Assembly (NCBI GenBank): GCA_016861085.1
Contig: BOKR01000001.1
Span: 668,081-732,080 of the forward strand
DNA: 64,000 bases
From: Patescibacteria group bacterium
GTDB lineage: Bacteria; Patescibacteriota; Microgenomatia; UBA1400; PJMF01
Direction: 5' to 3'
In this document: positions 22,031 through 28,147 of the stretch, in pieces
How the letters are laid out: every line of letters begins with the position of its first letter
How positions within the stretch are numbered: the first letter of the stretch is position 1
The notes under the pieces: generated by a model
What the model saw: the letters and a program-made list of their open reading frames with translations, nothing else
Database searches by the model: none
What the model was told of the DNA's origin: nothing
Made by a program: the position numbers and the translations under genes

Positions 22031-23122
22031 ATGGTACTAGAAAAAGATGAGCAAATAATTTTAGATCAAGCCCAAGAATATCTTGATTCTGTTGCTATCA
22101 GTCAAATTGAAACCGATCTCAAAACAAAAGAGGCAGTCACGTTTGAAGCCAGTTTTTGGCAATCAAATTCAGCGCAAAAAACAATGAAAGAAATTGCGCT
22201 AATTAAAGAAAAGATTGCAGAATATGAGTCGGTGAAGCAACTGGTGAATGATATTGAAGCCTATCAAGAGTTGTTAGAAGAAATTGAGGAAAACCAAAAA
22301 GAAGAATTAACCCAAGAACTACAAAAATCAATCAAAAGACTGGGCAGACTGGTGAACGAACTCAAACTGAAACAGTACTTAAGCGGAAAGTATGACAGTT
22401 ACCCAGCCATACTCTCAATCCATTCTGGACAAGGTGGTACTGAAGCCATGGATTGGGCCGAAATCCTCAAACGCATGTATTCTAGATATTTTGAACGAAA
22501 AGGCTGGAAAGCATCACTCATCAGCGAATCCAGAGGTGAAGAAGCCGGAATAAAATCGTGTGAGTTTGAAGTAGAAGCACACTATGCATATGGATTTTTA
22601 AAACATGAACAAGGCACGCATAGGCTAGTAAGGCAAAGTCCATTTAACGCCGACAATCTACGACAAACATCCTTTGCTCTCGTAGAAGTTTTACCATTAA
22701 TTGATGAAAATGACGATGAAATTCAAATCCCAGATTCAGAACTAGAGTGGAATTTTTCTAGGGCTGGTGGTGCAGGCGGGCAAAATGTTAATAAGGTTAA
22801 TACTGCAGTTGAGCTCACTCATATCCCAACTGGAATTACAGTTCGCTGTCGCGAAGAACGAAGTCAAGTTCAAAATAAAGAAAAAGCGCTAAAAAAGCTT
22901 AAAAGTAAACTTGCTCAAATTGAAGCTCAAGAACTTTCAGCAGAATTACAGCAAGAAAAAGGAGAATTTGTCCAGGCAAGTTGGGGTAATCAAATAAGAA
23001 ATTATGTTCTACACCCATATAAATTGGTTAAAGATACTAGGACTGAAGTAGAAACCACAAACACAGACCAAGTTTTAGATGGTGATATAGAAATATTTGT
23101 TCAAGCAGAAATTAAACTGTAA
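22031..23122 (+). CDS. prfB: Peptide chain release factor 2, encoded in a single frame (no programmed +1 frameshift site)
   Basis: SPF tripeptide (QSPFNAD) and GGQ ([12 protein letters not shown]). 363 aa contiguous ORF. Confidence 0.9.
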
Positions 23123-23168: not shown

Positions 23169-23732
23169 ATGAGAAAAATTTCATTAGAGCCAACTGGCTC
23201 ATCAAATAAACCGACTGTTGACGATGAACTGCTCCTAGAGCATAATCAGGATTCGTCCAATACAAACAGTACAATCACAAGAGATACAGGGAAAGAATCA
23301 CTTATGCGAGCTCCGTCTAAATTATTGATTACCTTAACAATCGTCGCAGTTCTTGCGGGAGTTGGTACGGGTTTTGGTACATTTAGGCTTCGAAACAAAA
23401 ACACTGAGCAGCTAGCAGCTGTCCCAACAACTGAAAGTGGTGTGGCAGCGGGCGATGAATTTGGTAGCAAAGACGAAGTTTTTGATTCACACGCCGTTGG
23501 ATATATTGAGGAAGGTGGACTTGACGGTGAGGGCTCACATAAACTGCTGCGAGCAGGTGGTGATTCTCAGACTGTCTTCTTGACTTCATCAGTAACCGAT
23601 CTTGATGTTTTTGTTGGTATGGAAGTCGAAATTTGGGGTGAAACATTCAAAGGTCAAAAAGCAGGATGGTTCATGGATGTTGGTAGAGTAAAGGTTGTAA
23701 ATCCTGATGGCCAGCCACCAACTGAAGAATAG
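23169..23732 (+). CDS. Hypothetical single-pass membrane protein (187 aa)
   Basis: Central TM LLITLTIVAVLAGVGTGFGTF. No known domain. Confidence 0.45.
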   Translation: MRKISLEPTGSSNKPTVDDELLLEHNQDSSNTNSTITRDTGKESLMRAPSKLLITLTIVAVLAGVGTGFGTFRLRNKNTEQLAAVPTTESGVAAGDEFGSKDEVFDSHAVGYIEEGGLDGEGSHKLLRAGGDSQTVFLTSSVTDLDVFVGMEVEIWGETFKGQKAGWFMDVGRVKVVNPDGQPPTEE

Positions 23733-23795: not shown

Positions 23796-24779
23796 ATGAT
23801 TGTATTTTCTTCTGTTAGCAAACAATTTCTTCCAGATTCATATGCTCTAGAGAATGTTTCTTTTGATATAGACCCAGGTGAACTTGTATTGTTAACCGGC
23901 CCCTCTGGGTCTGGCAAAACTACAGTGATGAAACTCTTAACCAAAGAGTATCAACCAACATCAGGTGAAATTCTGTTTCATACAGTTAATTTGAATGATA
24001 TTAAAAATTCACTCGTGCATGAGCACAGAAGAAAAATTGGGGTTGTATTTCAAGACTATAAATTGATTCCAGAGCTTAATGTTTGGGAGAACATTGCGCT
24101 TCCTCTTTCTATCATCGGTAAAAGCGAGGCAGAAACAGAAGAACGCGTGACAGATTTGCTAGAACTTGTAGGACTTGCTGACAAAGCCATGTATTTCCCA
24201 AAGCAACTTTCAGGTGGTGAGGCTCAAAGAATTAGTATTGCTCGCGCCCTTTCTACTGCTCCTTCCGTTATTTTTGCTGATGAACCAACTGGTAATCTAG
24301 ATAAAGATAACTCATTACAAATTGCAAAACTACTTACAAAAATCAATGAACTAGGCACAACCATACTCTTTGCAACTCACGACCATGATGTTTTGGATAT
24401 CCTTGGTGACCATAGGCATATTGTCTTAGAAAACGGTAAATTGGTGAGTGATACAGCCGGTAAATCGAAAAAAGTAAAAAAAGAAGAAACAAAAAAAACT
24501 GATACAAAAACAGAGGAGAAAGCTCCTGAAGTTGTGGAAACCGTTACTATAGTAGCAACAAATGAACCAAAACGAGTTGGTTTCCTCTCCTCGTTGTTCG
24601 GAAAAAAAGAGTCAAATAAAAAAATCAGCCTCAAAAAAGAGGACGAAAAAACAAAAGAGAAAGTGACCGAAACTAAAAGTGAATCAGAACCTGACGACAA
24701 GGACTCAGAGCATAAAAAAACTGAGAAAAAAGAAGAAAAATCTGAAAAAAAACCAGTAAAAGCAAAGAAAAAATCATGA
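23796..24779 (+). CDS. ftsE: Cell-division ABC ATPase FtsE with an approx. 100-aa Lys/Glu-rich C-terminal tail
   Basis: Walker A GPSGSGKTT, ABC signature LSGGEAQRISIARAL, Walker B IFADEPTGNLD. Residues about 225-327 are low-complexity K/E/T. Confidence 0.85.
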   Translation: MIVFSSVSKQFLPDSYALENVSFDIDPGELVLLTGPSGSGKTTVMKLLTKEYQPTSGEILFHTVNLNDIKNSLVHEHRRKIGVVFQDYKLIPELNVWENIALPLSIIGKSEAETEERVTDLLELVGLADKAMYFPKQLSGGEAQRISIARALSTAPSVIFADEPTGNLDKDNSLQIAKLLTKINELGTTILFATHDHDVLDILGDHRHIVLENGKLVSDTAGKSKKVKKEETKKTDTKTEEKAPEVVETVTIVATNEPKRVGFLSSLFGKKESNKKISLKKEDEKTKEKVTETKSESEPDDKDSEHKKTEKKEEKSEKKPVKAKKKS

Positions 24780-25645
24780 ACGCATTTACAACTGCCCTCA
24801 CTACCATTAGAAGATCTCCATATCAAGCGTTAACTTCTATTCTTATGGTTGCAGTAACTTTTTTTGTAGCGTACGCATTTTCAATATTCATGGTAGGTTC
24901 AAAGGTGGTCCTAGAACATTTTGAAACTCAACCACAAGTTTTGGCATTTTTTGAATTAGAAACCAAACCTGAGATTATTGAAACTGTTGCTAAAACTATG
25001 GAAGAGAAACCCTATGTTTCATCGGTTAAAATTATTTCACAGGAAGAAGCATTAAAACTGTATCAAAAAGATAATAGCGACGACCCATTGTTACTTGAAT
25101 TAGTCACTGCAGATATTCTGCCAGCGAGTGTCGAGGTCTCTGGTACAGATATTGACTCGCTTGCGCTCATCAAAAAAGACTTAGAAGTCTTTACTCAAGT
25201 TGAAGACATTGAATACCAAGAAGACGTCATTACCACACTTTCAAATTGGATTACTACTATTGAACTGACTGGATTGATAACAACAATAGTACTTGGCACA
25301 ATCTCATTCCTTATTATCATGGTTATCATAGCAATGAAGGCAAACGCTCAAAAAAAGAAAATCCAAATCATGCGTATGCTTGGAGCCACCAAATGGTACA
25401 TCAAAGCACCATATATGCACGAAGGTATTATTTATGGGTTTGTAGGTGCACTCGTAGGCTGGTTTGTGATGTTTGCTACCCTTCTATATCTCACGCCTTC
25501 CATAAACTACATCCTTGGAGATATCACACTGCTTCCTGCCCCACTTGAATTTTATGTAATTCATGCTTTAGGCGGAATTATTCTTGGGATGTTTTTAGGA
25601 GCATTCGCAAGTATTGTTGCAGTTCAACGATTCATTAAGAATTAA
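24776..25645 (+). CDS. ftsX: Cell-division permease-like protein FtsX
   Basis: Four TM segments with a large first extracellular loop. Overlaps the ftsE stop by 4 nt. Confidence 0.8.
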   Translation: MNAFTTALTTIRRSPYQALTSILMVAVTFFVAYAFSIFMVGSKVVLEHFETQPQVLAFFELETKPEIIETVAKTMEEKPYVSSVKIISQEEALKLYQKDNSDDPLLLELVTADILPASVEVSGTDIDSLALIKKDLEVFTQVEDIEYQEDVITTLSNWITTIELTGLITTIVLGTISFLIIMVIIAMKANAQKKKIQIMRMLGATKWYIKAPYMHEGIIYGFVGALVGWFVMFATLLYLTPSINYILGDITLLPAPLEFYVIHALGGIILGMFLGAFASIVAVQRFIKN

Positions 25646-25651
25646 GTTACA

Positions 25652-26908
25652 ATGAAAACAATCATGCAAACAATTAAATTGGCACTGGTGGCTCTGGTAT
25701 TATCTTCGCTTCTTTTTGCTAGAAATGCATATGCTCAAGAAAATTGTGACCAAGAGTGTAGTGAAGCAGACTCAAATTATGAGCAATGTCTAAAAGACAA
25801 GATTGCTTGCTTGGAAAATAATTTGGAAGAAACTAAAGCAAAAAAGACGACACTTGAGAATGCAATCAGCATTATCAATGGCAATATAAACATTCAACAA
25901 GTAAAAATCTCTCAAACTAAAAATGAAATCTCGGTTCTTGAAAAAGAAATTGCCGATCTAGATAACAGAATATCTGGTCTTAGTATTTCACTTGATAGAC
26001 TTTCTACGTTGCTAGTTGAAAGAATTCGCACCCAATATAAGAGAGAACAAGTTGACCCGATCACTTTTGTTGCATCATCAAAGTCACTCGCCGATTTTAT
26101 GTCACAATTCCGGTATTTGAGATTGGCTGGTCAACAAACAGCCCAGGCCATGCAAAAAGCGGAAAGTCAACGATCTGCGTACGATGAACAAAAAATACTG
26201 AAAGAAGAAAAGCAGGCAGAAGTTGAAAAGAAAAGACAGCAACTACAAGGTGAACAAAACATTCTAGTTGGTCAACGCCAGGAACAACAAAACTTGTTAA
26301 CTGTTACAAAAAATGACGAGCAAAAATTTCAACAGTTGTTAAAAGAAGCACAAGAACAAATCAATGCCATTAGAAGATATACCGCCAGTAAAGGTGGCGC
26401 ATCTATACTCTCTGGCACTACAAAATGTGATGACTGGGGTTGCTACTATAATCAAAGAGATAGTGAATGGGGCAACCAACTGATTGGTAGGAGCAATGAA
26501 ACTGTTGCTGAAGTTGGTTGTTTGATTGCATCGGTGGCAATGATTACCTCACACTATGGCAAAACCCTGACACCTGCCCAAATAGCCGGTAGCTCGAACC
26601 CTTTTTTCTATAATACTGCCGATATGCTTTGGACTTGGTCTGGCCCAGTCAATGGCGTTATGGCCACTAGAACAAGAGTTGGATACAATTCATCTGCTTT
26701 GGATGCTGAACTTAACGCTGGGAGGCCTGCAATTGTGAGAATATCTGTTGCCAATAGCGTTGGGACCCACTTTGTTGTCATAACAAAAAAACAGGATGGA
26801 AAATATATGATGAAAGATCCGTACGAAGCTGACGGTAATGACATCCCATTCACCGACAAACATTCTCTTTCTCAAATTACCGCGGTTGATAGACTTACCG
26901 TTCAATAA
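25652..26908 (+). CDS. Secreted coiled-coil protein with a C-terminal papain-fold (C39-like) cysteine peptidase domain. Positional analogue of PcsB/EnvC/RipC.
   Basis: Signal peptide, about 230 aa heptad coiled coil. C-terminal domain with putative catalytic Cys (AEVGCLIASVAMI), His (GTHFVVIT) and Asp/Asn, i.e. a Peptidase_C39_2-like arrangement. Immediately downstream of ftsEX. Confidence 0.55.
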   Translation: MKTIMQTIKLALVALVLSSLLFARNAYAQENCDQECSEADSNYEQCLKDKIACLENNLEETKAKKTTLENAISIINGNINIQQVKISQTKNEISVLEKEIADLDNRISGLSISLDRLSTLLVERIRTQYKREQVDPITFVASSKSLADFMSQFRYLRLAGQQTAQAMQKAESQRSAYDEQKILKEEKQAEVEKKRQQLQGEQNILVGQRQEQQNLLTVTKNDEQKFQQLLKEAQEQINAIRRYTASKGGASILSGTTKCDDWGCYYNQRDSEWGNQLIGRSNETVAEVGCLIASVAMITSHYGKTLTPAQIAGSSNPFFYNTADMLWTWSGPVNGVMATRTRVGYNSSALDAELNAGRPAIVRISVANSVGTHFVVITKKQDGKYMMKDPYEADGNDIPFTDKHSLSQITAVDRLTVQ

Positions 26909-26957
26909 CTTTTCTACGTCACACTTTATGTAAGGTTCACTACATATACTTGTACTC

Positions 26958-27758
26958 GTGAAAATATTCATTTTCGCAACCCTATTCTTTTTTTGGTTTG
27001 CCACCCCTGCCCGTGCACAAGTGGTGATCTCTGAAGTGTATCCTGCCCCCACTTCAGAAGAAAAAGAATGGATAGAGTTATACAACACCAGTGAGAGTTC
27101 TGTAGACATTTCTGGCTGGAAACTATTTGAACATTTTTCAAGTAAAAGTGAATTGGTTACCTTCATTAATGCTCAAATTGAACCGCATGGCTTTTTTGTG
27201 CTTGAATTAACCTCCAACAAACTTAACAACACCGAAGAAAAGATAAGTTTAGAAAACACACAGTTAGAAGAACAAAATGTGTTACATTTCACTAACAGCG
27301 AAACCCAAATGAGCTTTAGTTTTCTCTTTTCTGATGAGACTACAATAAGCGATACATTGGAAATTACTCAACCAACAAAAGGCATCAAAAACCCTGCCCT
27401 GGCCATACAAACTCCTACTCCTCTGCCAACACCAAGTACTGTACCTCAACCGACAACAACTGTAACCCCTACCCCCAATCCTCCCAAACAATCCTTGCAA
27501 GAAAACAGCAAATCTGAAGCAACCAAAGAGCTAACTGAGATCGATTCAAATGTAGACCCAAAACCTACACAAATAGAATCATATAGAAAAATATCACAGC
27601 TACTAAAACTTCCAAGTTATCTGCGTGTTGAAAAAGTAGGACTAGAGAAAAGAGTACCGCAACTCTCCTATCTAATTCAAAAAAAAGTTTCAAAACAGGG
27701 TGTCATAAATGCTATAATTGGAGGAACACTATTAGTATGTACAGGACTCCTGTTGTGA
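26958..27758 (+). CDS. Lamin-tail-domain (LTD) protein with a Pro/Thr-rich linker and a C-terminal TM anchor; GTG start
   Basis: LTD signature VVISEVYPAPTSEEKEWIELYNTSESSVDISGWKL. The PT-rich stretch is TPTPLPTPSTVPQPTTTVTPTPNPP. Confidence 0.6.
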   Translation: MKIFIFATLFFFWFATPARAQVVISEVYPAPTSEEKEWIELYNTSESSVDISGWKLFEHFSSKSELVTFINAQIEPHGFFVLELTSNKLNNTEEKISLENTQLEEQNVLHFTNSETQMSFSFLFSDETTISDTLEITQPTKGIKNPALAIQTPTPLPTPSTVPQPTTTVTPTPNPPKQSLQENSKSEATKELTEIDSNVDPKPTQIESYRKISQLLKLPSYLRVEKVGLEKRVPQLSYLIQKKVSKQGVINAIIGGTLLVCTGLLL

Positions 27759-28147
27759 ATTTTTTTGTAAAAAAACTGACGATCAAAGATTTTTTGTCTG
27801 CATTCGTGCCTCCTACTTTATGGGCAATTATTATTTTCTTATTCTCCTCACAAACTACACTACCGGGTTTTGAGGAATCAGCTTACGACTTTATTTTCAA
27901 AAAACTTGCGCATATTACTGTGTATTTAGTCTTATACTTATTAGTTTTTCGTGCAGTTAAGCTAACCAGTAATGAAAAAAATAAAAACACTCTTTTGCTA
28001 GTTCCAATCACTATTTGCTTACTGTACGCAATTAGTGATGAGTTCCACCAGTCACTTGTCCCTGGGAGATATGCAACACTGCGAGATATTGGGTATGATA
28101 TGCTTGGTGTCAGCATTGCTTTTCTCAAAAAATATGGGTATATATAG
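27737..28147 (+). CDS. VanZ-like family membrane protein
   Basis: 136 aa, 4 TM, with the conserved SDEFHQSLVPGR-type motif of the VanZ family. Overlaps the LTD gene by 22 nt. Confidence 0.55.
   Translation: MYRTPVVNFFVKKLTIKDFLSAFVPPTLWAIIIFLFSSQTTLPGFEESAYDFIFKKLAHITVYLVLYLLVFRAVKLTSNEKNKNTLLLVPITICLLYAISDEFHQSLVPGRYATLRDIGYDMLGVSIAFLKKYGYI

Follow-up and report, generated by a model that had tools for sequence, protein, structure and literature searches.

FtsE, a cytoplasmic ATPase, and FtsX, a membrane subunit with an extracellular domain (ECD), would together form the FtsEX mechanotransmitter, and the hydrolases under its control are a model for how dangerous wall-cutting enzymes are confined to the division site. 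In the FtsEX-EnvC systems of Escherichia coli, Vibrio cholerae and Pseudomonas aeruginosa (PDB 8hd0, 6tpi, 8tzl, 8i6o) the partner is a secreted protein with an antiparallel hairpin of ~200 residues, a short helix and a C-terminal globular domain, a degenerate, inactive LytM that activates AmiA/AmiB. In bacteria without an outer membrane the secreted coiled-coil partner is itself a hydrolase, with a Cys-His thiol catalytic domain, under the direct control of FtsEX: PcsB of Streptococcus pneumoniae (CHAP), RipC of Mycobacterium tuberculosis and CwlO of Bacillus subtilis (both NlpC/P60). Only LytM, CHAP and NlpC/P60 partners are listed in a 2024 review. Here we analysed a stretch of 64,000 nucleotides (the window; positions 668,081 to 732,080 of contig BOKR01000001.1, GenBank assembly GCA_016861085.1) from a Patescibacteria group bacterium, in which ftsE and ftsX are followed by a gene for a coiled-coil protein with a C39-like peptidase domain. 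The three genes probably constitute a division module of Patescibacteria (Microgenomates-type), in which FtsEX, with a tailed FtsE, works with a coil-docked, C39-like, peptidoglycan-cleaving enzyme whose catalytic part is a swappable cassette.

The three open reading frames lie where a first-pass annotation of the window had placed them, and coordinates and translations agree (all window features are on the forward strand). ftsE (23796-24779) encodes 327 amino acids; ftsX (24776-25645, 289 amino acids) shares the ATGA of its start with the ftsE stop; and the gene for the coiled-coil and C39-like protein (25652-26908, 418 amino acids) begins 6 nucleotides past the ftsX stop. The GC content is ~37%, and the 418-residue protein has a 100%-identical counterpart in 'Patescibacteria group bacterium BroJett025'. 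We found no terminator-like sites within the module, and since promoter and terminator scans did not rise above shuffled sequence, co-transcription is proposed from gene spacing only.

The ABC ATPase core of FtsE (residues 1-220, 23796-24455; Pfam ABC_tran E=4.6e-37) has TIGR02673 as its top NCBIfam match (249.6 bits, residues 1-215 against positions 1-214 of a 214-position model), with LolD as runner-up at 173 bits. Its translation includes Walker A (GPSGSGKT), signature (LSGGE), Walker B (IFADEP) and H-loop (ATHD) motifs, and we assigned it to FtsE because of the best family match and the translational coupling to ftsX. FtsX is a permease-like protein with four transmembrane (TM) segments and an ECD at about residues 54-145 (24935-25210), between TM1 and TM2. 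It exceeds the Pfam cutoffs for both FtsX_ECD (PF18075, 49.4 bits, cutoff 23.5) and the FtsX permease domain (PF02687, 43.3 bits, cutoff 25.5), and its top NCBIfam matches are FtsX_Gneg (164.9 bits) and FtsX_Gpos (147.6 bits).

The third protein carries a Sec signal peptide (residues 1-28, 25652-25735), composed of MKTIMQTIK, the hydrophobic LALVALVLSSLLF and ARNAYA, with cleavage after AYA and QE as the next residues; its residues 2-23 were modelled as a helix. It is followed by an antiparallel coiled-coil hairpin (residues ~43-246, 25778-26389, predicted tip ~133-145), the predicted FtsX-docking module. In the AlphaFold model of the full-length protein (predicted local distance difference test, pLDDT, 88.8), helices at 43-62, 68-132, 146-219 and 223-246 account for ~200 residues, and residues 250-418 are globular. 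Searching PDB sequences with the single window protein (phmmer) gave no significant match (best E=0.035, to a coiled coil). With a family profile built from 29 diverse members, the top match was E. coli EnvC (E=1.8e-8), profile positions 24-228 running colinear with EnvC 28-232, followed by a second EnvC construct (6.5e-6), EnvC of V. cholerae (9.5e-5) and P. aeruginosa (5e-3), and PcsB (0.05). Foldseek analysis of the full model ranked EnvC of the V. cholerae FtsEX complex first (8tzl_E), with PcsB, EnvC-FtsX(ECD) and RipC-FtsEX near the top. Two family members (P0072 and P0095) exceed the cutoff of Pfam CC_PcsB, a likeness to PcsB, and several bear the JGI label 'CwlO-like'. That is, the protein is a secreted coiled-coil protein of the EnvC/PcsB/RipC type, as had been proposed, and belongs by architecture with the FtsEX-controlled class (EnvC, PcsB, RipC, CwlO); its coupling to FtsEX is visible as gene adjacency only. 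It resembles the EnvC systems in having an FtsE ATPase, an FtsX with an ECD and a secreted hairpin alike in sequence and fold, followed by a short helix and a globular domain, but differs from them in that the partner gene directly adjoins ftsX and in the nature of the C-terminal domain.

The best-conserved stretch of the coil, residues ~91-130, flanks the predicted hairpin tip; R124 is present in 108 and Y129 in all of the 110 family members over which residue conservation was counted. In EnvC, residues 114-160 touch FtsX (PMC11627006), and given the colinearity with EnvC we would expect the region around residues ~91-130 to be the docking region. Up to four cysteines cluster ahead of the coil (Cys32, 36, 46 and 53; 25745-25813), and Cys36 and Cys46 tend to occur as a pair (both in 47 family members, neither in 57, mixed in 6).

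Residues 250-418 (26399-26905) form a C39-like, papain-fold cysteine peptidase domain, where EnvC has its inactive LytM. The first-pass annotation had called this domain a papain-like C39_2-type domain with Cys, His and Asp rather than LytM or CHAP, which proved correct: Pfam Peptidase_C39_2 (33-36 bits, gathering cutoff 24) and Peptidase_C39 (28-32 bits, gathering cutoff 22) both match, whereas a search with the isolated domain at a cutoff as loose as E<=10 returned no CHAP, NlpC/P60 or M23 match. Four candidate catalytic residues, Gln268 (26453-26455), Cys290 (26519-26521, in VGCLIAS), His373 (26768-26770, in GTHFVV) and Asp389 (26816-26818), are each conserved in 110 of 110 family members, which are 35-82% identical. 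Gln268 is a candidate oxyanion-hole residue alongside a Cys290/His373/Asp389 triad, so that the Cys, His, third Asp/Asn and oxyanion Gln of a papain-type fold all have a counterpart. A second pair of cysteines, Cys259 and Cys264 (KCDDWGCYY, 26426-26443), is present in 96 members and absent in 14, with no member having only one of them; this all-or-none pattern suggests a disulfide next to the active site.

The model of the domain alone (pLDDT 95.8, predicted template modelling score 0.92) is closest in structure to PeiR (PDB 8z4h), at 13% identity. Lower-ranked matches were the peptidase domain of Streptococcus mutans ComA (11.3), a 'C39-like peptidase' of Bacillus anthracis (3erv, 11.0), PCAT1 (10.9), a CdiA-CT papain-like toxin (10.8) and classical papain-family enzymes (about 8-10), and no CHAP structure was among the top 60. 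Against a viral structure library, the best matches were virion-associated lysins (a tape-measure lytic domain, a cyanophage 'lysozyme' and a 'morphogenesis protein 1 hydrolase'). A list of the enzymatically active domains found in phage lysins includes Peptidase_C39_2 (PMC8223927). PeiR itself, a lytic enzyme of the C39 family from a methanogen virus, degrades pseudomurein walls, and it cleaves wall-peptide mimics, not double-glycine leader peptides, with residues Q84/C90/H181 (PMC6189367, PMC13642728). Unlike the window protein, PeiR (from phi-mru) has neither a coiled coil nor a link to FtsEX; its target is the pseudomurein of archaea, to which N-terminal pseudomurein-binding repeats deliver it. 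A conventional PcsB/CwlO homologue, considered as an alternative identity, was rejected: neither CHAP nor NlpC/P60 turned up in the hidden Markov model search, and neither is the closest fold. The first-pass annotation had gone further and read the domain as a different peptidoglycan peptidase chemistry under FtsEX control. The enzyme family is indeed different, and the specificity for the scissile bond probably differs as well, but 'different chemistry' was overstated because PcsB CHAP and RipC NlpC/P60 are Cys-His papain-type enzymes too. Taken as a whole, that interpretation is thus supported in part.

We then looked at the distribution of the module. Homologues of the window protein numbered 374 at E<=1e-3 (best E down to 1e-269), so that its features are not due to chance. 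When one genome per GTDB species was scanned, 383 stretches with relatives were found, nearly all in metagenome-assembled genomes of Patescibacteria/Microgenomates (Pace-, Woese-, Collier-, Shapiro-, Levy- and Daviesbacteria labels). Among the 80 loci retrieved, 67 had at least 1.9 kb of flank, and in 61 of these 67 ftsX lies immediately upstream on the same strand; the pairing is therefore stable across a large lineage and not a one-off. Many of the records that hold the locus (L001-L003, L007, L010 and others in our numbering) carry titles such as 'uncultured Pseudomonadales' or 'Gammaproteobacteria' (one is 'Pseudomonadales bacterium isolate HK-STAS-PATE-15'), probably because their taxonomy was mislabelled at the source.

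The catalytic part of the protein is exchangeable. The cassette (26360-26957) is replaced by a circularly permuted M23 domain at orthologous loci of close relatives: M23 stands in place of C39 in 9 of the top 120 homologues, which are 63-75% identical to the window protein over its N-terminal ~57% only. The window protein itself has no M23 domain; at the orthologous locus, P0053, P0101 and other allelic forms have one. Six M23 forms, all orthologous to 25652-26908, were located (L081:6001-7233, L083:6001-7230, L087:3141-4367, L088:4001-5251, L089:4001-5227 and L090:1895-3133). Together with further C39 forms (L086, L091 and L092) they occupy the same locus as the window gene, with the common order DUF4012, prfB, a hypothetical gene, long-tailed ftsE, ftsX, the coiled-coil gene, LTD (lamin-tail-domain), VanZ, HU and ABC-2 genes. 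The window protein and P0053 are 80-100% identical as far as about residue 230, and with a break near residue 232 the value falls to 10-25%. At the nucleotide level, homology between the window and the M23 locus L081 stops at 26359 and is back at 26958; between L086 (C39) and L081 (M23) it is lost at codon ~229 and returns just 5' of the LTD gene. In the M23 cassette, the N-terminal piece corresponds to positions 62-89 of the Pfam model and the C-terminal piece to 2-53. The half with HLH thus comes first and the half with HxxxD last, and both metal-binding motifs, HxxxD (HPALD) and HxH (HLH), are kept.

Trees of the genes flanking the cassette on either side (FtsE core plus FtsX; VanZ plus HU) placed L081 (M23) as sister to L086 (C39), with bootstrap values of 100% and 99.7%, and the M23 loci were monophyletic in none of 300 replicates. 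These trees imply that the cassette was exchanged two or more times, or that an old polymorphism persisted and was sorted among the lineages. Coil identity in C39/M23 pairs is 88-92% (between two M23 forms it can be as low as 79%) while the catalytic domains are unrelated, which could also be expected if each genome held two paralogues whose coils were homogenised by gene conversion. We rejected this account, which is hardly credible: the loci examined, C39 and M23 alike, all prove to be one ftsEX locus with shared flanking genes, those on both sides pair L081 with L086, and neither the 64-kb window nor the ~13-kb C39 loci contain such an M23 paralogue, save for an unrelated M23 gene in L026 with 30% identity. 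Allelic replacement at one locus is the reading we follow.

A bolder version of it is that in this clade the output of FtsEX is a recombining two-state cassette, C39-like or permuted M23, exchanged at least twice at one breakpoint in the helix after the FtsX-docking coil, with selection that could maintain the dimorphism and a MinD-like membrane-targeting helix on a tether of FtsE (see below). We put this forward tentatively, leaning slightly against it. If true, selection on the dimorphism could come, for example, from differences in the cross-bridges of the wall, from inhibitors of host or phage origin or from the redox state (thiol versus zinc enzyme), and the helix would give the ATPase its own contact with the membrane or the divisome. 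Exchange of C39 and M23 on a conserved coil would also mean that activation through FtsEX and the coil is indifferent to the catalytic fold.

The exchange bears on the substrate as well. An apparently active M23 endopeptidase domain can take the place of the C39-like domain on one and the same scaffold, which makes peptidoglycan the likeliest substrate of the latter. The domain might instead be a protease acting on a protein or peptide, such as a double-glycine leader, an S-layer or pilus subunit or a division protein. This is improbable, as the C39 domains of bacteriocin ABC exporters (ComA, PCAT1, LahT), which cut double-glycine leaders, are cytoplasmic and N-terminal, whereas the window domain is the C-terminal part of a Sec-secreted protein with an EnvC-like coil and does not have the bacteriocin-processing architecture of Peptidase_C39 sensu stricto. 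Its best structural match is the wall-lytic PeiR and not a leader-cleaving enzyme, it is replaced in situ by M23, a family of peptidoglycan endopeptidases, and the neighbouring FtsX_ECD is specific to FtsX.

The likeness to EnvC raises another possibility, namely that the C39-like domain is a non-enzymatic regulator that activates a separate amidase or hydrolase in the manner of EnvC's degenerate LytM. The coil is closest in sequence to EnvC, which is an activator and no enzyme (PMC11627006). But the LytM of EnvC is devoid of metal ligands, while the Gln and the Cys/His/Asp are here conserved in 110 of 110 members and the alternative M23 cassette retains HxxxD and HxH. Patescibacteria, moreover, are thought to possess a single membrane, and it is in single-membrane bacteria that FtsEX works on hydrolases directly (PcsB, CwlO, RipC). 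A purely regulatory role is therefore very unlikely in our view, even more so than a protein substrate.

For a wall-cutting enzyme under FtsEX control, the known systems suggest how it would work. The coil would dock on the extracellular domains of FtsX, as do the coils of EnvC, PcsB, RipC and CwlO. Binding and hydrolysis of ATP by FtsE may then move these domains and strain or deform the coil, whereupon the catalytic domain would be released or exposed. That the coil binds the FtsX ECD, and that activation depends on ATP, are both proposed by analogy with these systems. The C39-like peptidase would cut the wall at the division site or septum only, probably as an endopeptidase on stem-peptide cross-links.

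Several points weigh against this view of the module. FtsE, at 249.6 bits, falls 15 bits short of the NCBIfam equivalog cutoff of 264.85, and FtsX, at 164.9 bits, remains below its cutoff of 255. Such scores are expected for a divergent phylum, and we treat the pair as a genuine, if divergent, FtsEX. The composition of coiled coils is able to inflate profile scores. Finally, the fold alone leaves the activity of a C39-like domain unfixed: a C39-like archaeal protein has been reported to be active on beta-galactoside analogues and not on peptides, although in that protein Asn replaces the Asp that is invariant here (PMC13642728).

FtsE has a long C-terminal tail (residues 221-327 plus the stop codon, 24456-24779), which overlaps the ftsX start at ATGA. 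Among its 107 residues are 32 Lys and 19 Glu. The first-pass annotation had described it as a Lys/Glu-rich extension absent from canonical FtsE, and this holds: TIGR02673 ends at residue 215, and the sequence beyond it, residues ~216-327, is real, in frame and specific to a clade. A frameshift or sequencing artefact was rejected. The reading frame of the tail is the only open one, the remaining two being full of stops, and tails of 50-180 amino acids, likewise in frame and ending at or overlapping the ftsX start, were seen in 19 independent assemblies. These belong to the closest clade, taken as FtsE identity of about 61% or more together with the loci of M23 type; in more remote members of the family the tail has 0-50 residues. 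The tail is a rapidly evolving, disordered extension. Its conservation across relatives is partial, in that an in-frame tail is present throughout the closest clade but its sequence is unconserved and cannot be aligned except for one short hydrophobic motif of the type GF[LF]xxLF.

In the window, this motif (G262-FLSSLFGK-K271, 24579-24608) is a candidate amphipathic helix for membrane targeting or docking. Variants are GFWVSLF (L001), GFLAKLFGKK (L002), GFFSSLF (L003), GLLAKLLGKK (L010) and SFFKKLFARKK (L039), and, at the M23-type loci, GFFSKLF (L081) and SFFARLF (L083). A strict [FW][FWL]xx[LF]F-type motif was found in 10 of the 19 long tails, versus 0.03 expected from composition-preserving shuffles (maximum 2 in 2000). 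The membrane-targeting sequence of E. coli MinD is KGFLKRLFGG (PMC5471200). With (V)GFLSSLFGKK the FtsE tail shares the GFLxxLFG core and the basic residues on its flanks, but in the middle of a disordered K/E-rich extension, and on an ABC ATPase that is already membrane-anchored via FtsX. The tail may be a disordered tether for a helix that binds the membrane or docks onto a partner, a proposal for which we regard the chances as even; the motif would most likely give FtsE a further hold on the membrane or dock a divisome partner. The computed hydrophobic moment of the motif, 0.32, is lower than the 0.45 of the MinD sequence and is not the maximum within the tail; since the scan did not pick out the motif, we do not claim amphipathicity as demonstrated.

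The same tail could also have arisen without a specific function, by neutral low-complexity growth through poly-A slippage in an AT-rich genome that is tolerated at a C-terminus. Its variable length, its essentially unconserved sequence and the 11 A-runs of 6-8 nucleotides in its coding stretch would fit such growth, as would the absence of the motif from the tails of the L004-L007 subclade and the near absence of tails in more distant members. We nevertheless consider it rather unlikely, given that the frame is open up to the ftsX start in each long-tailed locus and that the motif is so far in excess of expectation, M23-type loci included. As separate observations, the FtsE tail of L026 (ending at ~5116) has a His/Asp-rich run, DSHDGHHHDHHHDDHHDH, which is metal-binding in appearance, and that of L011 (ending at ~4857) contains LESKP four times in tandem.

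Other genes accompany the module. Between prfB and ftsE (23169-23732) lies a gene for a 187-residue protein with one TM segment and no Pfam match; a gene for 186-192 amino acids, likewise without a Pfam match, occupies the equivalent position in all full-length orthologous loci examined (L081, L083, L086-L089, L091), and its product may be an accessory factor of the module. On the 3' side of the hydrolase gene, all close loci have the gene for an LTD protein (26958-27758; GTG start, signal peptide, Pro/Thr-rich linker and C-terminal TM segment; 254-398 amino acids depending on the locus) and for a VanZ-family protein (27737-28147). The upstream prfB (RF2, 22031-23122) is one unbroken frame of 363 amino acids that begins 1 nucleotide past the stop of the DUF4012 gene. 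ftsE stops with TGA, and UGA is therefore not recoded in this lineage. In S. pneumoniae, too, prfB is linked to ftsE and ftsX.

Our literature search on FtsEX or FtsX with C39 or C39-like domains, and on FtsEX with Patescibacteria, which covered few subscription-journal papers, did not find the pairing described here. Databases already label the protein 'C39 family peptidase' or 'CwlO-like', so that the gene family as such is not unknown; the most interesting additions are the recurrent exchange of C39 and M23 cassettes and the motif-bearing tail of FtsE. The C39-like domain would be a fourth catalytic family beside the LytM, CHAP and NlpC/P60 domains of the FtsEX partners studied so far. Natural swaps of C39 and M23 on a near-identical coil amount to an evolutionary experiment, which suggests that activation is a matter of the coil and FtsX and depends little on the catalytic fold; a design rule for chimeric FtsEX-controlled enzymes would follow from this. 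The motif in the FtsE tail suggests a lineage-specific link of FtsE to the membrane or the divisome. For the Patescibacteria, which are uncultivated, genome-reduced and tiny-celled and whose cell-wall biology is almost unknown, the C39-like protein is probably a principal division hydrolase.

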